In this document: positions 1-6,203 of the stretch, piece by piece | Position numbering within the stretch: the first letter of the stretch is position 1 | Layout: every line of letters starts with the position of its first letter | From: a virus | Length of the DNA: 6,203 bases | Reading direction: 5' to 3' (one strand) | IMG/VR virus record: IMGVR_UViG_3300045988_028252 | Coordinates: 1-6,203 of that record | Program-made: the position numbers and the translations under genes | The notes under the pieces: generated by a model | The model's database searches: none | What the model was told of the DNA's origin: nothing | The model's input: only the letters and a program-made list of their open reading frames with translations

Positions 1-55
1 GAAAGGCACAGCGATATTGCTGGGCATATTTTTTAATAACATTTTCTCGTTTTTG
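1..55. repeat. Terminal direct repeat (exact copy at 6149-6203) indicating a circular genome assembled with 55-bp redundancy; unit genome length 6148 nt
   Basis: Bases 1-55 (gaaaggcacagcgatattgctgggcatattttttaataacattttctcgtttttg) reappear exactly at 6149-6203, read directly from the sequence. Confidence 0.95.
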
Positions 56-81
56 TAATTTAGATAGTTTATTATCAACAT
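1..81 (-). CDS. N-terminal 27 codons of a 46-aa hypothetical protein (MLIINYLNYKNEKMLLKNMPSNIAVPFYLLNSQRANVKIIITKKSF) whose ORF wraps across the circular junction and continues at 6148..6089
   Basis: ATG at 81..79 is preceded by a perfect AAGGAGG Shine-Dalgarno (complement of 86-93) at 5-nt spacing. The frame runs in phase off position 1 into 6148 and stops with TAA at 6091..6089, which is followed by TT-ATG of the next ORF. Confidence 0.5.
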   Translation of the reverse strand, partial: MLIINYLNYKNEKMLLKNMPSNIAVPF

Positions 82-100
82 ATTTACCTCCTTGTTTTTT

Positions 101-106
101 ATTATA
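101..106 (-). promoter_or_regulatory. Candidate -10 box (TATAAT on the minus strand) about 20 nt upstream of the first-gene ATG, with the AAGGAGG RBS at 86-93; putative main promoter of the polycistronic array
   Basis: The minus-strand sequence reads ...tatatttgtagTATAATaaaaaacAAGGAGGtaaatATG. No clear -35 hexamer is present (A-run at the -35 position). Confidence 0.35.
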
Positions 107-130
107 CTACAAATATACTCATTTTTTTTG

Positions 131-142
131 ATTCTGCAGAAT
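131..142. repeat. Perfect 12-bp palindrome attctgcagaat (contains a PstI site), flanked by a T8/A8 run; candidate operator or protein-binding site upstream of the putative promoter
   Basis: The sequence is its own reverse complement and lies about 25-36 nt upstream of the TATAAT box on the coding strand. Confidence 0.4.
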
Positions 143-194
143 TTTCTGTTATTTATCTGAAGTATTTAACTTTAATTAGCAATAGTATCTTTAA

Positions 195-400
195 GCCTCC
201 GTGGCGTTTGAGCGGTGATGGAGCAATAGAGGGCGCATAGCCCTCCTTAACGTCTAGTACCTTAGTATCGGCGGAGCCGCACACCACGACCGTAGGTCGG
301 GTGCCCGTCATTCCTTATCCCGGTTTTAAGGTAGCCGCCTTTTGGTTGAAGCCGTACCTCACCCTCCCGTTATACACTCTTATCTAATCGGATGCGTAGT
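195..400. other. GC-rich (about 55-60% GC against about 35% genome-wide) hairpin-dense non-coding island immediately downstream of the rep stop; candidate replication origin or complementary-strand initiation (ssi/primosome) structure or packaging signal
   Basis: Composition was counted over 241-360. Hairpins: 229-245 (gagggc/gcata/gccctc); 282-303 (cacc-a-cgacc/gta/ggtcg-ggtg, 9 bp with one bulge); 313-331 (cctta/9-nt loop/taagg); 329-359 (aggta...tacct). The direct repeat agccgc occurs twice. No convincing ORF and no tRNA-like fold. Confidence 0.45.
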
Positions 401-1441
401 TTATGTGTAAGAATGGTTGTTATAATATAGATTGGTGAATAAATCTATATCGTTACTGAATTGGTTTTCGCTTTTTTTCTCTTTTTTCTTTAGCTTCTCG
501 GCAACTATAGTTGCTTTAGTTTCCTTCCATTGACGTTGTTTTTTAAGTCTGTTGAGATATTTTCTTTTATCCCAATCTTTTGGATTGTCGTAATATAGTC
601 TTTCGCATCGTTCTCGCTCGCTTACGAGTACTCCCATATATCTTGATTCTTCCGTTTTTAGGTTTATTTTAATGCCTAGTACGTATACAATTCCTTTTTC
701 GATTTTATCTAGGAATAGTTTTTCACGTTCTTCTTCTGTAAATATTTTGTTTCTGTAATAAATTGGTAGATTAAGTTTTCCACCGTTTCTCATTCGGTAT
801 GATTCGTTTGTTTCGCCTTGTTTGTATACATGCTTTTTGGCATCCTCTCGCTTGAGGTATCCTGCCCCTATTCCTGCCGAGCATAATACTTTCCCTCTGA
901 ATTTTGGATGTTTTTCGTCGATTTTTAGCATGTATTTTGTGATGTATCTGATTGTTTTTTCATTTACAAAATATCCGGTGAATGTGATTCCGTATTTCCA
1001 CTTGTCTATTATTTTCTTGTCATTTCCCAAGCCCCATACTATCCCGTGAAGGTGTAATCTTTCCGTTTTCTCGTGTCCGAGTTCTGTAATAAACCAATGC
1101 TTTACGGATTTTCCGGTTAATTTCCGTACTCTCTCTAGGCATAATCTTATGGCTTTTGTTGCGATGTCGTTATTATCTTTTAATTTGTATTTTTTACTTA
1201 TTTGCTTGTATGATTTATCATCGATTGTCAGTGTTAGGAAATAGGCGTTTGGTGTTTGCCTGTTTTCCTCTGACATTCTTACTATCCATTGCCTTTGTTT
1301 TTGTTTTCTACACTCGTAACAGTCCCCGCATGCTGCTGTTACATAGCGTAGTCTTTCGTCAGGACAAATGGGCGGTATTCCGCCATTTTTTTTAGTTGGC
1401 AGATACCGCTTATTTGGTATGAGTTTAGGATATAGGCACAT
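401..1441 (-). CDS. Rolling-circle replication initiation protein (Microviridae VP4/gpA-like, HUH endonuclease superfamily), 346 aa
   Basis: N-terminal CPxxx...CGxCxxC zinc-finger-like motif. RCR motif I FLTLT (residues about 68-72). Motif II HUH as RLHLHGIVWG (residues about 128-137, nt about 1031-1060). Motif III with catalytic tyrosines YITKY (Y166/Y170, nt about 932-946). Layout is typical of microvirus Rep proteins. Confidence 0.9.
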   Translation of the reverse strand: MCLYPKLIPNKRYLPTKKNGGIPPICPDERLRYVTAACGDCYECRKQKQRQWIVRMSEENRQTPNAYFLTLTIDDKSYKQISKKYKLKDNNDIATKAIRLCLERVRKLTGKSVKHWFITELGHEKTERLHLHGIVWGLGNDKKIIDKWKYGITFTGYFVNEKTIRYITKYMLKIDEKHPKFRGKVLCSAGIGAGYLKREDAKKHVYKQGETNESYRMRNGGKLNLPIYYRNKIFTEEEREKLFLDKIEKGIVYVLGIKINLKTEESRYMGVLVSERERCERLYYDNPKDWDKRKYLNRLKKQRQWKETKATIVAEKLKKKEKKSENQFSNDIDLFTNLYYNNHSYT

Positions 1442-1454
1442 AATTATTAAATAC

Positions 1455-2480
1455 TTATTTACCTATTTTTACTCCTTGTGCTGCTCCTGCTCCTTTTAAA
1501 GCTATTTCGAGCAATCCTAGTACAATGTCTTTGACGAGCTTTTGCTCTTCAATATCCAGACCTTTTTTGCCTAGTTCGTATTTGTTTATTACGTCTTGTG
1601 CATAGGCTTCCATTTGTTCTTTTTGGATTTTGAGTGCTTCTCCTTTTTTGATAAGCTCATCCCATCCTTGTAGAATTCGTGCCGGAATTGCTTTTGCTTC
1701 CTCTTCATTGACTTTTCGTTGGCTTCCTTTAAGTAGTATTTCGGACATTAGATTTTGAAGTGTTAGAGCGCTTTCTTTAACCTTGTTTTCGATTGTTCTT
1801 CTTTTGAGGTTGTTATCGAGGTCTAAACCGTCAATTTCCGCTGTTAGTTTGTCAATTCCTTTTTTGAGGCTTTTAACGTTCCATCGTGTTTCTTCGGCTT
1901 TTTCCTTCGTCCAATCTGCGGTATTCCTTTTTAGTTCTTCTTCGGCATCTGCTACTCTGATTTGTCCTAGTATAAGTCCTCGTTTTATTTTTTCGTTTGC
2001 GGTCTGTGCTATCAGGTTGTCAATGGTAGCTTTTTGTACTTCTGAATCTACGCCTTTGATTTTATTTGCTTCGGCTTCGTTTTTGTTAGCTTGGCTTTCA
2101 TTCAGTTTTATTTGGCTTAGTGCGTTTGCCATTTCTATTCCGATTTCCTGTGCTCTTAGACCCATTCCTACCGATTGGTCTTGAGGCAGTCCTACTCCGC
2201 TTGCTGTTCCTGCTCCTTGTGTCGAGCCTCCTTGTCCTCCCATTCCATAAATTAGCCCTGGACTTAGTCCTGCTTCTTTTATGTGTTTCATTTGGTTTTC
2301 AAAGTTGGTATAATTCCACATTTCCTTTGCTTGCATTGTATTGAATTTGGCATTTTTCCTATTCAATTCTGCTTGTATTTCCATTAGTTCGTGTTGTCTC
2401 TGCCAACTTTGGTTACTTGCACTATTTGCATTGAGTGCTCCCATTAGAGCTCCTCCTATTCCCATTATTGCTCCTATCAT
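1455..2480 (-). CDS. DNA pilot / minor capsid protein (Microviridae VP2 / phiX H-like), 341 aa
   Basis: Gly/Ala-rich hydrophobic N-terminus (MIGAIMGIGGALMGALNANSASN), then a conserved AGLSPGLIYG-type motif with a second Gly-rich stretch (GMGGQGGSTQGAGTASG), then a long Lys/Glu-rich predicted coiled-coil C-terminal half. Position is between capsid and rep, as in other microviruses. Confidence 0.75.
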   Translation of the reverse strand: MIGAIMGIGGALMGALNANSASNQSWQRQHELMEIQAELNRKNAKFNTMQAKEMWNYTNFENQMKHIKEAGLSPGLIYGMGGQGGSTQGAGTASGVGLPQDQSVGMGLRAQEIGIEMANALSQIKLNESQANKNEAEANKIKGVDSEVQKATIDNLIAQTANEKIKRGLILGQIRVADAEEELKRNTADWTKEKAEETRWNVKSLKKGIDKLTAEIDGLDLDNNLKRRTIENKVKESALTLQNLMSEILLKGSQRKVNEEEAKAIPARILQGWDELIKKGEALKIQKEQMEAYAQDVINKYELGKKGLDIEEQKLVKDIVLGLLEIALKGAGAAQGVKIGK

Positions 2481-2497
2481 AATTATTTACATTTTCG

Positions 2498-2517
2498 CGC
2501 TTTGATGTTTCAAAGCG
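2498..2517. promoter_or_regulatory. 8-bp stem / 4-nt loop hairpin (cgctttga-tgtt-tcaaagcg) about 20 nt upstream of the VP2 start, inside the 161-nt intergenic region 2481-2641; regulatory or structural element
   Basis: The arms 2498-2505 and 2510-2517 are perfectly complementary. No U-tract follows on the coding strand, so this is not a canonical intrinsic terminator. Two further hairpins lie in the same IGR (2568-2585 tccgg/8-nt loop/ccgga; 2618-2637 tttgaaaa/tacc/ttttcaaa, directly after the upstream gene's stop). Confidence 0.4.
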
Positions 2518-2641
2518 ATATTCTTATTACTTGATATTAAATTGTAGGTGCGTACTTTCGTGTATTATCCGGTAATTAAACCGGACAATACTCCGAAGTG
2601 CTTGTTACCTACAAGGCTTTGAAAATACCTTTTCAAACAGT

Positions 2642-2959
2642 TTAATTTTCACTTGGTGACCCTCCATCTGCTTTATTAGGCACGTCTCCGAAATCTCCTG
2701 GCTTAGGCGCTATTTCTTTTTTCGCTATATTTCTTGTCATTTTGTCGTAGGCATCCATTGCAATATCGAACCTATCCGTACGGATGTTGTATGCTGGCAA
2801 TACTCCATCTTCTTTTGCTGTGTAAATTATTGGTGCGGTGTCTGTGATTGGTTCACCGTTTTCCAGCACTCTTGCGCATTTTGTTTCAATGCTTTCACCT
2901 TCATATATTTCTACGGAGTCTAATCTTCCGTTGTTTTTTGTTGGATTTGAATACTTCAT
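2642..2959 (-). CDS. Hypothetical acidic protein, 105 aa from ATG at 2959 (the ORF track's 118-aa version uses an upstream GTG at 2998 that overlaps the capsid gene by 26 nt); located between major capsid and pilot genes, a possible scaffolding or minor structural protein
   Basis: Continuous ORF in the gene array, 13 nt after the VP1 stop. D/E/G/P-rich composition. No recognisable motif. Confidence 0.5.
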   Translation of the reverse strand: MKYSNPTKNNGRLDSVEIYEGESIETKCARVLENGEPITDTAPIIYTAKEDGVLPAYNIRTDRFDIAMDAYDKMTRNIAKKEIAPKPGDFGDVPNKADGGSPSEN

Positions 2960-2972
2960 GATGTTATAATTT

Positions 2973-4904
2973 TTATAGATTAGGAATTTGTTTTGCACTG
3001 ATTAGGCGTCTCACTTTGATGTCAAATTTTGTTTGTACCCAAAAATTCATAGCGTCTAGATTTGTGTCTGCAAAGATGTAATTGAATTTTACTGGGTCAA
3101 TATAAGTTGTTAAATCTTCTATCTGTCCGTTTGTTGCCATTGAGTAATTGCGGTTAAGTACCATGAAACTTTCTGGCATTCCTGGCGCGAAGTTTCCGAA
3201 TGTTCTGTTTACATTTGTCATGTAATTTATCCATGCCACAGTCTTTCCCGCTGCTGTTCTTGCGAGTAATGGTCCGTCTGATAGGTAATCTGTCCACCAT
3301 GCCCTTTCTCCGTTTAATGAATCTTGGTATCCGATTCCGTCAAGTGCTGGTTTGTGCCAATCGTTCATGGTTTTTAGGTAACTATCCCATGTGTTCCCCT
3401 GTCCGTAGTCGATACGTGGCGTGATTGAGCATATACACATTATGTAGCATGGTTCCGTTACCTTGATTCGAATGTGTCCGCCTTTTTGTCTTCCTGTTGT
3501 TACGCCTCTTCCGGCTAGCGTTCCTAATGGTTCGTCCTGGCTTGCGCTGTTGCTTATTACTTCTTGAAATACGATTTCTTGGCTTACACCCCCTTCAAAC
3601 ATTGGCGTTTCGCATCTTTCCATATAATTCCCGCCTGTATATACTGTTTCTAGCCAATCTCTGTAAGTTCCTCCGCTTACTGCGATTCTGTTTAGGAAAT
3701 TATATACTTTTTGTGCTAGATTCAGTGCGTCCATGGATAGTATGCCGTCTGCCACATCTACTGCACTTGCTTCGTTAATTCCGTTCACTCCTTCTATCCA
3801 TTCGGTGTTTATCCAATTTTGATATAAGTCGCTATTGTATGTTTTTAGACATAGTCCGTATTGTGGGCTATTTGTTGTTAGATTCTTCTCTCTTGTTCTT
3901 TCTGCAAAGTTTATAAATGGCCTTACACTCATTTTTGAATTTGCTAAGTCAAATACGGTATCTCCAGGAGTCATTAATATATTATCCCTGATTGTGTCTA
4001 GATTTTCCAACGGGAATTTTTCTAGTGATGTTCTTTTTGTTGAATATATCGCTGTTACATACCATGTTTGCCCTGCCGGTATTTTGGTTATTGCAATTTT
4101 TACTTCGTCTGTTTGTACACTGAAATTTCCTATTTTTGATGGAGTTAACACTTGTTCTCTTGCGTTTTGTGATGTTTTAACTCTCAGCATTAGTTCTTTT
4201 TCGGTTATTGTAGCCGGAGTTATTGTGATTGTTTTTCCGCTTGTTATTTCTCCTAGAATTTGCGGTATGTTGTCAGCGTTTGGAATTGGATTACTATTTA
4301 TTGTTGCGGTTATTTTTGGAGATGTTCCAATCATATAAAAGTTTTCTTCCTGTGTGTTTGCGTAGTAATTTTTAAATATATCAAAATATGATAGTATAGG
4401 TAACGCATTTTTGCTTACTGACTTTTCGCCACTTTTTGGCGTGTTCGCGTATCCTCTGATCCCTAGGTATGCTAGTAGGCAACTTGGATTTACTTGTATC
4501 CATTGTTTTTCTTCGTTTGACGGTGTGTCTGTTAATGTTTTTATGTTTACACTTATTTGAGGTAATTTTACTTGCTCCATGTTTAGCCCAATTTTTGTCC
4601 GGTTATTGTGTAACCAACTGTTGTACAGCCTTACCGGGCAAGTATACATGTGATGTTCTAGTTTGAATGAGCCAAATAGAGGTCCCGTTGTTGGATGTGT
4701 GAGTGCATTTGAATCTACGTCAATATCGAATGTATCCCCTTTTTGTCCTACTAGGCACAGGTTTGGAACTAGTGTTCCTGGGCTTTGTGTGTTTCTTACA
4801 ATTGTTGATAAGTCGTGTGTTGACATGTTGTAGTCATGTAGACTAACTGACATTTTGTTATTGTCTCCTATGGTATTTTTACCAATGTTTTTTTCTATTG
4901 CCAT
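2973..4904 (-). CDS. Major capsid protein (Microviridae VP1 / phiX F-like jelly-roll MCP), 643 aa
   Basis: The N-terminal region matches the conserved microvirus MCP signature (G-LVP-------GDTF----------T-P--G-LFGSF----H-Y-CPVRLY--W). Size is typical of gokusho- and alpavirus-like MCPs. A strong SD AAGGAGGA lies 8 nt upstream of the ATG, embedded in the 3' end of the preceding ORF. Confidence 0.9.
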   Translation of the reverse strand: MAIEKNIGKNTIGDNNKMSVSLHDYNMSTHDLSTIVRNTQSPGTLVPNLCLVGQKGDTFDIDVDSNALTHPTTGPLFGSFKLEHHMYTCPVRLYNSWLHNNRTKIGLNMEQVKLPQISVNIKTLTDTPSNEEKQWIQVNPSCLLAYLGIRGYANTPKSGEKSVSKNALPILSYFDIFKNYYANTQEENFYMIGTSPKITATINSNPIPNADNIPQILGEITSGKTITITPATITEKELMLRVKTSQNAREQVLTPSKIGNFSVQTDEVKIAITKIPAGQTWYVTAIYSTKRTSLEKFPLENLDTIRDNILMTPGDTVFDLANSKMSVRPFINFAERTREKNLTTNSPQYGLCLKTYNSDLYQNWINTEWIEGVNGINEASAVDVADGILSMDALNLAQKVYNFLNRIAVSGGTYRDWLETVYTGGNYMERCETPMFEGGVSQEIVFQEVISNSASQDEPLGTLAGRGVTTGRQKGGHIRIKVTEPCYIMCICSITPRIDYGQGNTWDSYLKTMNDWHKPALDGIGYQDSLNGERAWWTDYLSDGPLLARTAAGKTVAWINYMTNVNRTFGNFAPGMPESFMVLNRNYSMATNGQIEDLTTYIDPVKFNYIFADTNLDAMNFWVQTKFDIKVRRLISAKQIPNL

Positions 4905-4907
4905 GGT

Positions 4908-5189
4908 TTAGTCCTCCTTTTTTTTAGTATCGTTAACAATTCCTTTTGCGACTTTTTTCCCGGTACGTTTGAGTTTTTTTTCGTATTCGTCTGCCTCTTT
5001 ACATGCATATATCATTGCTGCAACTAGATTCCAATCTACGGAGTTGATTTTTTCTTCTGCTGCTTCACGTGTTGGAAATTTTTCAGTTGTTGCTAAATGG
5101 TTTCCAATTACAATCATGTATTCTTTTTCTTCTTGTGTTGTTGGTAATACTTTGAATACATCTTTCATGTCGTTAAATTCTTTTTCCAT
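4908..5189 (-). CDS. Hypothetical 93-aa protein with acidic N-terminal body and strongly basic C-terminal tail (KKLKRTGKKVAKGIVNDTKKKED); possible DNA-binding / packaging (J/VP8-like) or scaffold protein
   Basis: ORF immediately upstream of the MCP gene (3-nt gap), coupled to the upstream gene by a TAA-AA-ATG junction. The functional assignment is by position and charge pattern only. Confidence 0.55.
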   Translation of the reverse strand: MEKEFNDMKDVFKVLPTTQEEKEYMIVIGNHLATTEKFPTREAAEEKINSVDWNLVAAMIYACKEADEYEKKLKRTGKKVAKGIVNDTKKKED

Positions 5190-5191
5190 TT

Positions 5192-5398
5192 TTAATAGTT
5201 TTTAGGATTAATATTAATTTTTGTACTATCAACGCTTGACGTTGTCGTTTGGTCGGTCTTTTGCGTTGAGTTTTGATTGTTTTTGCTGACGCTTAAACTC
5301 ATTGTGCAACTTTGCACACAAAGCGTAGTAATGATTGCAATTATTGCGGTCGAAATAGCTCGGATAATTTCTACCCATTGCGTCCCGTTGATTTTCAT
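5192..5398 (-). CDS. Hypothetical 68-aa single-pass membrane protein (TM segment WVEIIRAISTAIIAIITTLCV, Ser/Thr-rich hydrophilic tail); candidate lysis (amurin-like) or membrane-targeting accessory protein
   Basis: ORF-track ORF. Its ATG overlaps the stop of the upstream 30-aa ORF in an ATGA arrangement, and its own stop is followed by AA-ATG of the next gene. Hydrophobic core is about 21 residues. Confidence 0.5.
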   Translation of the reverse strand: MKINGTQWVEIIRAISTAIIAIITTLCVQSCTMSLSVSKNNQNSTQKTDQTTTSSVDSTKININPKNY

Positions 5399-5487
5399 AA
5401 GTTTCCATTTTTAATGTATAAATAACTTCCGCCTATGAAGGCGATTATTAATAGTAATATTACTATTCCGAATACTTCTCTAGGCAT
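5395..5487 (-). CDS. Hypothetical 30-aa hydrophobic peptide (MPREVFGIVILLLIIAFIGGSYLYIKNGNL), a single predicted TM helix; not in the ORF track because it is shorter than the cutoff
   Basis: ATG at 5487..5485 lies 2 nt after the TAA of the upstream 84-aa ORF (taaACatg). Its TGA stop at 5397..5395 overlaps the ATG of the downstream 68-aa ORF (ATGA). It fills what would otherwise be the only gap in the small-gene block. Confidence 0.45.
   Translation of the reverse strand: MPREVFGIVILLLIIAFIGGSYLYIKNGNL
5450..5467. repeat. Perfect 18-bp AT-rich palindrome aatagtaatattactatt, embedded in the 30-aa TM-peptide ORF
   Basis: The sequence equals its own reverse complement (9+9, no spacer). An adjacent 5-bp-stem hairpin cgcct-atga-aggcg lies at 5430-5443. 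Confidence 0.6.
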
Positions 5488-5489
5488 GT

Positions 5490-5744
5490 TTAAAATAATT
5501 TAAGTTGTTTTTGATTCCATTTTTCTAAATCTTCGTTGTCTTTGTCATAAGTTTTTTCACATATTAACCTCCTTTCTTGTTTTGTGAAGATGTATTTTTT
5601 TGTAATAACATCTTCTTCTAGTTCATAACATATTTTTTTCATTTTTATTGATGTGTGAAAGTACACATAGTTTTTTAACTCCTGAAATGTATTGAAAATA
5701 TGTCCGTCTGCTTCATAATTTCTAATCTTTTTCGGTTTTTTCAT
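5490..5744 (-). CDS. Hypothetical 84-aa protein (K/E-rich, basic N-terminus MKKPKKIRN)
   Basis: ORF-track ORF within the co-oriented gene array. Its start overlaps the 3' end of the upstream 67-aa ORF by 23 nt. No SD. Confidence 0.5.
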   Translation of the reverse strand: MKKPKKIRNYEADGHIFNTFQELKNYVYFHTSIKMKKICYELEEDVITKKYIFTKQERRLICEKTYDKDNEDLEKWNQKQLKLF

Positions 5745-5925
5745 TTTCGTTAGGATATAATTTCCATGATTCTACTACTGCTATTATACGCTCGTTTTTT
5801 GGTACGACTGCTTTTGCAATTGTTACTGCTATTTTGTATGTACATTCTGTTGGTATTTCTTTTACCATTACATGAGACGTAGGATTGTCTCCCGTTGTGA
5901 TTACTGAAAATTTTGTTGCTGCCAT
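5722..5925 (-). CDS. Hypothetical 67-aa protein
   Basis: ORF-track ORF. Its ATG lies 2 nt after the stop of the upstream 52-aa ORF (taaTTatgg junction). Confidence 0.45.
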   Translation of the reverse strand: MAATKFSVITTGDNPTSHVMVKEIPTECTYKIAVTIAKAVVPKNERIIAVVESWKLYPNENEKTEKD

Positions 5926-5927
5926 AA

Positions 5928-6086
5928 TTATCTGTTTTTTATATTTTTAGTTTTCTGTATTTCTTCAATTATTAATACTATTGTAGTAATTAGCGCTTCT
6001 TTTTCTTTTTTGGAGCATTTTAATTGTCTTTCTGATTTGAATTTCCAGAGCGCTTGTTCTAATCTCATTAGTTCTTCTGATTCCAT
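5928..6086 (-). CDS. Hypothetical 52-aa protein (MESEELMRLEQALWKFKSERQLKCSKKEKEALITTIVLIIEEIQKTKNIKNR), below the ORF-track cutoff
   Basis: ATG at 6086..6084 lies 2 nt after the TAA of the junction-spanning 46-aa ORF. Its own TAA at 5930..5928 is followed by TT-ATG of the 67-aa ORF. The identical taattatgg junction occurs at both ends. Confidence 0.45.
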   Translation of the reverse strand: MESEELMRLEQALWKFKSERQLKCSKKEKEALITTIVLIIEEIQKTKNIKNR

Positions 6087-6088
6087 AA

Positions 6089-6148
6089 TTAAAAAGATTT
6101 TTTAGTTATTATTATTTTTACATTAGCTCTTTGTGAATTTAATAAGTA
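6089..6148 (-). CDS. C-terminal 19 codons plus stop of the junction-spanning 46-aa hypothetical protein (continuation of feature 1..81)
   Basis: In-frame continuation across the circular junction. The stop TAA is at 6091..6089, immediately followed by TT then the ATG of the next ORF (the taattatgg junction motif). Confidence 0.5.
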   Translation of the reverse strand, partial: YLLNSQRANVKIIITKKSF

Positions 6149-6203
6149 GAAAGGCACAGCGATATTGCTGGGCATATTTTTTAATAACATTTTCTCGTTT
6201 TTG

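Follow-up and report, generated by a model that had tools for sequence, protein, structure and literature searches.

A conserved predicted mini-lipoprotein encoded upstream of the capsid gene in Bacteroides-associated microviruses, a candidate factor for host exit

The stretch of DNA considered here, referred to as the window, comprises positions 1 to 6,203 of the IMG/VR virus record IMGVR_UViG_3300045988_028252 and is a complete microvirus of the Bacteroides-associated, alpavirus-like kind. Its minus strand encodes a protein of 68 amino acids (aa), and we are highly confident that this is a real, conserved lipoprotein-like gene; directly in front of it lies a hydrophobic open reading frame (ORF) of 30 aa. 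Judged by its conservation across viruses, the 68-aa ORF is a genuine, ancient gene, and its product is a predicted lipoprotein, a prediction that is strong but not proven. The product would be a periplasm-facing lipopeptide effector and most likely the missing lysis factor of these viruses, a reading that we place first and hold with slightly less than even confidence. The 30-aa ORF, by its distribution, is a young, dispensable accessory gene and not one half of a conserved pair.

Both ORFs had been pointed out by a first-pass annotation as two adjacent, translationally coupled mini-proteins with one transmembrane helix each, and had been proposed as candidate amurin-type lysis genes. The 30-aa ORF (MPREVFGIVILLLIIAFIGGSYLYIKNGNL; 5395-5487, minus strand) is a single-pass hydrophobic mini-ORF of a narrow lineage, and the 68-aa prolipoprotein gene (MKINGTQWVEIIRAISTAIIAIITTLCVQSCTMSLSVSKNNQNSTQKTDQTTTSSVDSTKININPKNY; 5192-5398, minus strand) follows it. 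Both were confirmed on the minus strand together with their junctions: a gene for an 84-aa protein is joined to the 30-aa ORF by TAA-AC-ATG, the 30-aa and 68-aa ORFs overlap in ATGA, and the 68-aa gene is joined to a gene for a 93-aa protein by TAA-AA-ATG. The best Kyte-Doolittle mean over 19 residues is 2.64 for the 30-aa ORF and 1.92 for the 68-aa ORF, and these two are the only coding-strand ORFs of at least 20 aa, with any start codon, that reach a 19-residue mean hydropathy of at least 1.6. As 0 of 300 mononucleotide shuffles additionally yielded an ATG-initiated ORF of at least 30 aa with a hydropathy of at least 2.5, the observation is real and not an artefact of composition. Both ORFs look translated and membrane-targeted. 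Their tight junctions, from which genuine translation had been argued, add little to this alone and are not specific to the pair, because the gene cluster is packed equally tightly throughout, with gaps of 2-3 nucleotides (nt) or overlaps.

Homologs of 65-68 aa were found in the same place in all four GenBank relatives first examined (PV067927, Dulem virus 218, Tortoise microvirus 13 and OP549871). A pattern search in IMG/VR confirmed 130 stretches as encoding the 68-aa family, and 80 of these were kept as loci for analysis. The protein database holds 540 clusters of the family at 90% identity, all on contigs of about 6 kb or on fragments, and all either unnamed or labelled 'hypothetical protein'. 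An exhaustive profile search of 1.84 billion representatives gave 84 clusters at 50% identity, all of 44-136 aa, with no multidomain relative of the 68-aa protein among them. Searches with tblastn and blastn of both ORFs against GenBank phages returned one, zero and five records despite existing relatives; they were nearly blind because the queries are short and of low complexity, and relatives were found by pattern-based locus searches in their place. Sequence searches of both ORFs against Pfam, PHROGs, NCBIfam, PADLOC and PDB produced no match that reached threshold, and Pfam at E <= 0.1 gave two chance-level matches only.

Three further observations concern the gene and its surroundings. 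A frameshift lies inside the lipobox of the lipoprotein gene in contig L094 (around 1590-1800), and several database clusters are similar frameshift chimeras, which may stem from misassembly or from defective genomes. The lipoprotein gene is flanked by the two copies of a 14-nt direct repeat (ATTAAAAATGGAAA on the coding strand; window positions 5183-5196 and 5402-5415); one copy is the start of the 93-aa gene and the other starts an out-of-frame 59-aa ORF (5229-5408). The repeat is kept in PV067927 and not in Dulem virus 218. The 59-aa ORF lacks hydrophobicity and persists in near-identical relatives alone, and was therefore rejected as a gene.

The N-terminal hydrophobic segment of the 68-aa protein had been taken for a transmembrane helix that anchors the protein. 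Of the two readings, a cleavable lipoprotein signal peptide fits the segment better. The predicted signal peptide (residues 1-30; 5309-5398, minus strand) has an n-region with K2 and R13, an h-region of only 15 uncharged residues (A14-V28) and a lipobox-like V-Q-S in front of Cys31. Since the segment ends in this lipobox-like V-Q-S-C with an invariant Cys, the mature protein is expected to be without a transmembrane helix. A basic n-region and a short uncharged h-region were seen in all family members inspected, and the Cys is present in all 80 loci within the local variants VQSC, AQSC, TTAC, STAC and SQSC. Of 69 representatives of the 50%-identity set, 63 have S, A or G at position -1. A PROSITE-type lipoprotein rule was passed by 53 of 80 relatives, and the 27 failures, the window included, were caused solely by a Cys at -4, a residue that is replaceable (Tyr in P0035).

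The same segment shows a likeness to the NCBIfam family NF033879, 'smalltalk protein', which comprises small Bacteroidota proteins. Residues 7-32, reaching through the position after the Cys, align to profile positions 4-29 of 29 (E = 2.9e-4, 20.6 bits), which is below the cut-off of 24.7, and the match covers only the part resembling a signal peptide and is silent on the mature tail. AlphaFold2, run with a 12-sequence alignment, gave a confident helix only at about residues 5-30. The canonical pathway of Lgt and signal peptidase II is present in Bacteroides (PMC11573676).

The mature lipopeptide would extend from Cys31 to Tyr68 (38 aa; 5195-5308, minus strand). It is rich in Ser, Thr, Asn, Lys and Gln (18% S, 16% N and 16% T), with two short alternating hydrophobic/polar stretches (T-M-S-L-S-V-S and K-I-N-I-N) that flank a polar linker, and the tail measures 37-38 aa across the family. 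AlphaFold2 predicts it to be disordered, with a predicted local distance difference test (pLDDT) score below 50. The mature part is 76-92% identical to that of the window in 46 of 52 loci and 57-66% identical in the other six, in a comparison in which capsid identity runs from 88% down to about 20%. Signal peptide identity is 87-100% in close relatives and falls to 30-63% where capsid identity is below about 65%. Compared with Bacteroides prophages, the lipopeptide is still about 84% identical, and the capsid of the window was undetected there by tblastn at 1e-3, save for one marginal 63-residue hit in L091.

When the window is compared with distant relatives, synonymous sites are at saturation (proportion of synonymous differences, pS, 0.72-1.07), and conserved serines are encoded by TCN codons in some and by AGY codons in others, which argues for long-term purifying selection on the tail at the protein level. 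Two other causes of the conservation were considered and rejected: recent horizontal transfer, because of the saturated synonymous sites in distant comparisons and the diverged signal peptide, and a DNA element, because of the same saturation and the switches of Ser codon family. Among 144 unique mature peptides, numbered with Cys31 as 1, T2, S4, S6, T18 and Q20 are invariant and Q16, E19, D27 and S28 are conserved to about 99%; C1 and K9-N10-N11 are also invariant, but this is imposed by the search pattern.

With regard to location, surface exposure of Bacteroides lipoproteins depends on acidic residues just after the Cys, CS(D/E)2 (PMC6222051). Positions +2 to +5 are free of Asp and Glu in all 144 mature peptides, and the lipopeptide should therefore stay on the periplasmic side. 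The tail also contains a match to an O-glycosylation sequon, D57-S58-T59 (5222-5230, minus strand), the motif in Bacteroidota being D-(S/T)-(A/I/L/V/M/T) (PMC8550257). The sequon is kept at one fixed position in 141 of 144 unique mature peptides and in 52 of 69 representatives at 50% identity, compared with 9.5 expected from shuffled tails. Its third residue varies only among T, V, A, I and L, all of which are allowed, and representatives that do not have it are mostly frameshifted or truncated. The lipopeptide is thus probably O-glycosylated at D-S-T.

From these sequence features a course of events for virus exit may be proposed. The 68-aa gene would be co-transcribed and translationally coupled with the late gene block, and its product would be exported via Sec by the N-terminal signal peptide, lipidated at Cys31 by Lgt and cut by signal peptidase II. 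The resulting 38-residue lipopeptide, having no acidic surface-export signal, would be retained facing the periplasm, probably O-glycosylated at the conserved D-S-T, and its near-invariant tail would bind a conserved component of the host envelope. Such binding would lead to envelope failure and release of virions, so that lysis would be achieved by a single gene, with its product at work on the periplasmic face; in function the lipopeptide would resemble the colicin lysis lipoproteins more than the transmembrane amurin E. The 30-aa peptide would at most modulate the function of the lipoprotein. The role in lysis proposed by the first-pass annotation accordingly persists as the leading idea for the 68-aa protein, no muralytic enzyme being encoded, and the form of an E-like transmembrane amurin is unsupported.

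Several lines of evidence are consistent with lysis. The 68-aa and 30-aa ORFs are the only membrane- or export-targeted ORFs of the coding strand, and searches of Pfam and PHROGs gave no muralytic or holin family in the window. The M15 peptidase occurred in 0 of 94 lipoprotein loci, of which 42 are at least 5.4 kb long, and the lipoprotein in 0 of 8 M15 microviruses, the M15 side having been covered by tblastn against GenBank phages and by five fetched M15 genomes. In the literature, these viruses are still short of a gene for an essential step at the envelope, and lysis beyond the phiX group has no explanation other than peptidases (PMC7062461, PMC9239249). It had been stated beforehand that alpaviruses have no lysis gene; this is true only in part, as many related microviruses carry an M15 peptidase (PMC3394797, PMC13064476), the Bacteroides fragilis isolate phiHBP1 among them (PMC13064476). 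A description of any lipoprotein in alpavirus-like microviruses was not found in the full texts searched, the coverage of which is incomplete.

The position of the gene is also informative. In relatives with 50-54% capsid identity, the slot between the genes of the 84-aa and 93-aa families always holds a small membrane-directed product, the sequence of which drifts. In mar40, mar45 and mar49 this product contains ITAC or VTAC followed by TNSLFVVKG...DS(T/A), and in RodF8_19 it is a clear family member. In Dulem 201 (L107, 4924-5142) the Cys is kept with an Asp at -1, which makes cleavage by signal peptidase II unlikely, and in Dulem 214 (L106, 5462-5557) the slot is occupied by an unrelated 31-aa amphipathic ORF. 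Conservation of a slot together with turnover of its sequence tends to be seen with small-phage lysis genes.

A number of points weigh against the lysis reading. Single-gene lysis proteins are usually fast-evolving; the near-frozen tail is unusual for them and fits another host-directed role equally well. The mutual exclusivity of M15 and lipoprotein is confounded by phylogeny, because the capsids of the M15 genomes are only about 22-27% identical (partial local BLASTP alignments). The lipobox is atypical, with Q at -2 and, in the window type, Cys at -4; the residue at -3 is E, or that at -1 is D, K or N, in some distant members. Frameshifted copies of the 68-aa gene exist in metagenomes and represent either assembly errors or tolerated loss. 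Moreover, temperate microviruses show a superinfection immunity of unexplained mechanism (PMC7062461). The more specific proposal, that the lipopeptide represents a new class of single-gene lysis effector, periplasm-facing, probably O-glycosylated and disabling a conserved Bacteroides envelope process, is put forward only tentatively and may well be wrong. In one version of it, the peptide would enter the general O-glycosylation machinery by way of its D-S-T sequon and sequester undecaprenyl-phosphate-linked intermediates, by which cell-wall synthesis would be starved.

Among known systems, the colicin lysis proteins or bacteriocin release proteins are closest in form, with a looser likeness to the phage lipoproteins Llp, Cor and Rz1. 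These are small lipoproteins encoded on enterobacterial plasmids, and they release contents by envelope damage without a muralytic enzyme. Common features are a very small prolipoprotein with a signal, predicted in the microvirus protein, for signal peptidase II, a short polar mature lipopeptide of a few dozen residues rich in Ser, Thr and Gln, and co-expression with a highly expressed cargo gene. The size of 68 aa, composed of a 30-residue signal and a 38-residue mature part, is also in keeping with them, and the resemblance is one of form only: there is no sequence similarity and no Pfam match at E <= 0.1. The microvirus protein further differs by its host phylum, by being encoded by a virus, by its somewhat longer mature part (37-38 aa) and by the Bacteroidota sequon.

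Superinfection exclusion had been named by the first-pass annotation as an alternative function, and it remains the main rival, ranked below lysis. The model here is provided by the phage superinfection-exclusion lipoproteins Llp of T5 and Cor of phi80, N15 and T1. The 68-aa protein would then mask a receptor, block the receptor or DNA entry, or shield released virions from debris or vesicles. It is a predicted small phage-encoded lipoprotein of the right size that would act on the envelope, its high conservation could track a conserved host protein as target, and its relatives are temperate and integrated in Bacteroides chromosomes; temperate gokushoviruses do confer superinfection immunity by an unexplained mechanism (PMC7062461). 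However, the lipopeptide keeps an identity of about 84% across viruses between whose capsids tblastn detects no similarity, which would hardly be expected if it masked one shared receptor, and without a surface-export signal it should not reach the cell surface at all. The gene is coupled to late structural genes and does not resemble a stand-alone moron, and a virus of 6 kb would hardly keep an optional function in nearly all of its genomes. In contrast to Llp and Cor, the 68-aa lipoprotein is common to viruses with unrelated capsids and predicted to face the periplasm, and it had no match in Pfam, PHROGs, NCBIfam or PADLOC. We therefore regard exclusion as unlikely, though it deserves to be kept in mind.

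The history of the 30-aa ORF is a different one. It is created, relative to PV067927 and most relatives, by a 71-nt indel (5416-5486, minus strand) that was identified by alignment with PV067927, and only the A of its ATG and its last seven codons lie in sequence common to the window and PV067927. Among about 85 related loci, the ORF was found only in L005, L006 and L009, at the same junction, and a metagenome scan added five further contigs (L093-L097), which are of the L009 type. The conservation that had been expected of the two ORFs as a pair thus holds for the 68-aa gene, present in all four relatives first examined and in 130 stretches, and fails for the 30-aa ORF, which is missing from PV067927 and from nearly all other relatives.

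Nevertheless, the 30-aa ORF is probably a translated single-pass peptide, as far as its sequence allows this to be judged. The predicted product consists of a 21-residue helix with at most 5 residues beyond it at either end. Two types of the ORF exist, which differ at 16 codons by 8 synonymous changes and 8 conservative replacements (R/K, V/I, I/L, I/A, G/S, S/C and N/D twice); the helix is kept, as are the start and the ATGA stop junction in both types. The insert contains 34% T, compared with 20% on the coding strand, and only one of its six frames is open, which is the one used.

The opposite view is that the 30-aa ORF is not a functional gene, but a neutral insertion or a structural element of DNA or RNA that is open in one frame by chance. 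It would explain why the ORF is restricted to nine contigs and two closely related types. The ratio of nonsynonymous to synonymous substitution rates (dN/dS) between them is about 0.24 (P about 0.02), which is a weak test, as a control frame gave a similar ratio, and one copy of the ORF (L096, 613-702) has a premature stop at codon 24. The copy of the insert in the window furthermore contains an 18-nt perfect palindrome and a 5-bp GC hairpin, the latter kept through a paired change in the L009 type. The palindrome is absent from the L009 type, however, and folding of the insert region as single-stranded DNA gave z = -1.6 and hence no unusual folding, so that an explanation by DNA structure was kept only as a minor rival. 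A hydrophobic ATG-initiated ORF is also unexpected on an A-rich strand, as the 300 shuffles had indicated, and an insertion without function would not account for the preserved junctions, the single open frame and the exclusively conservative replacements. Taken together, the absence of a function is possible but doubtful.

The same junction bears other indels. In L017 (2423-2524) and L031 (3363-3488), a decayed duplicate of the 5' end of the lipoprotein gene (MKITGSHRAEIIR...) is located there, which has also been counted in favour of a non-functional insertion, and the junction appears to be prone to indels and duplications. A donor of the 71-nt insert was not found in any fetched locus. Derivation of the insert from the signal-peptide region of the lipoprotein gene was rejected, since similarity at the DNA and protein level was no better than with shuffles. 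The gene order, with a membrane protein first and a small lipoprotein second and the stop of one overlapping the start of the other, recalls the Rz/Rz1 spanins, but this likeness is superficial: the 30-aa product has no periplasmic domain and is absent from most relatives, the window has no holin or endolysin family, and M15 is missing from the 94 lipoprotein loci.

On this basis, the reading of both products as bitopic proteins like E of phiX174 or LysM of levivirus M can be assessed. Helix-helix contacts with MraY or MurJ would let them inhibit a membrane step in the supply of lipid II; for MurA, a cytoplasmic enzyme that the first-pass annotation had also listed, another mode would be required. 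E of phiX174 is overprinted inside gene D, and its transmembrane helix acts on MraY. The likeness consists of a small membrane-targeted protein with one hydrophobic helix in each product, a tiny phage genome devoid of an endolysin and the standing of leading lysis candidate. Small lysis proteins with a single helix are established in phages with single-stranded DNA or RNA genomes (PMC12506998; bioRxiv 10.1101/2023.10.16.562596). LysM has 37 aa and one helix (PMC12506998), and the 30-aa ORF, with its 21-residue helix and short ends, is alike in size and shape and taken alone would fit; the protein of Dulem 201, with Asp at -1, may also stay anchored. For the 68-aa protein the resemblance to E was not sustained, as the constraint is on the extracytoplasmic tail (76-92% identity in most loci) and the hydrophobic segment diverges, ends in a lipobox-like motif with an invariant Cys and is predicted to be cleaved off. 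Almost all relatives lack the 30-aa ORF and yet must be able to lyse, and one copy of the ORF has a stop at codon 24. Both ORFs of the window are stand-alone genes, unlike E, and neither Pfam nor PHROGs gave a match to lysis families at E <= 0.1. We consider a bitopic mode of action for both products to be improbable.

As to genomic context, bases 1-55 of the window recur exactly at 6149-6203 as a k-mer overlap, so that the assembly closes to a circle of 6148 nt. All long ORFs are on the minus strand, and this coding strand contains 43% A and 20% T. They comprise Rep (401-1441), the pilot protein (1455-2480), a 118-aa ORF (2642-2998), the 643-aa major capsid protein (2973-4904; PHROG 514, E = 2e-41, and Pfam Phage_F) and a tightly packed block of small ORFs (4908-6086), all on this strand. 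Within the block, the 84-aa gene (5490-5744, minus strand) forms the 5' edge of the slot and the 93-aa gene (4908-5189, minus strand) lies between the lipoprotein and capsid genes; both belong to conserved families without assigned function. The 84-aa family was found in 47 loci by ORF clustering and in 57 by tblastn, with zero matches in Pfam, PHROGs or NCBIfam, and the 93-aa family in 29 and 63 loci, respectively. In other clades nothing intervenes, and only 1-3 nt separate the lipoprotein gene from the capsid gene.

Non-coding sequence of appreciable length is confined in the window to about 1-400 and 6087-6148, which is probably a promoter, origin or integration region; DNA-level conservation with PV067927 and OP549871 covers about 150-400 and yields spurious conserved ORFs. 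An Rfam scan of the window gave nothing relevant. The genome is mosaic: the small-gene module (4908-5744) is nearly identical to that of L005, the capsid of which is only 74% identical, and the closest capsid (2973-4904) is found in L036 (88%), a genome without the 30-aa ORF. This mismatch between module and capsid argues for recombination between co-circulating microviruses.

The nearest GenBank record is PV067927, a human-gut Microviridae genome with 81% nucleotide identity, and other relatives come from samples of lemur, tortoise, rodent and human. The host is Bacteroides, because prophage copies of the 68-aa gene reside in genomes of this genus; in one of them, on a 3.7-Mb contig of Bacteroides sp. 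f07, the lipoprotein gene stands immediately before the capsid gene. The lineage of the window was placed in the alpavirus kind, which has been described as proviruses of Bacteroidetes (PMC3091885, PMC9239249). The Bacteroides prophage copies adjoin one host gene, encoding a 404-aa TPR-like protein downstream of gyrA (L090, 5972-7186; L074, 1396-2610), and the same gene is present beside viral genes in seven IMG/VR loci, which suggests that its neighbourhood is a preferred integration site.

In the human gut, such microviruses rank among the most abundant phages, and how they leave their host is unexplained except for the subset with an M15 peptidase. A conserved, unannotated mini-lipoprotein in a fixed slot represents a concrete candidate gene for this exit. 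The 71-nt indel, for its part, shows the birth of a membrane mini-gene at a junction, with a truncated copy in L096. If the lipoprotein served in exclusion, it would explain immunity in temperate microviruses. If it proved to be a lysis effector, it would be the missing lysis gene of dominant human-gut microviruses, and the position ahead of the capsid gene would serve as a slot for lysis genes, in which new membrane peptides arise, such as the 30-aa ORF and the 31-aa ORF of Dulem 214. Its target would then mark a conserved weak point of the Bacteroides envelope, and the peptide would be a natural lead for a narrow-spectrum agent.

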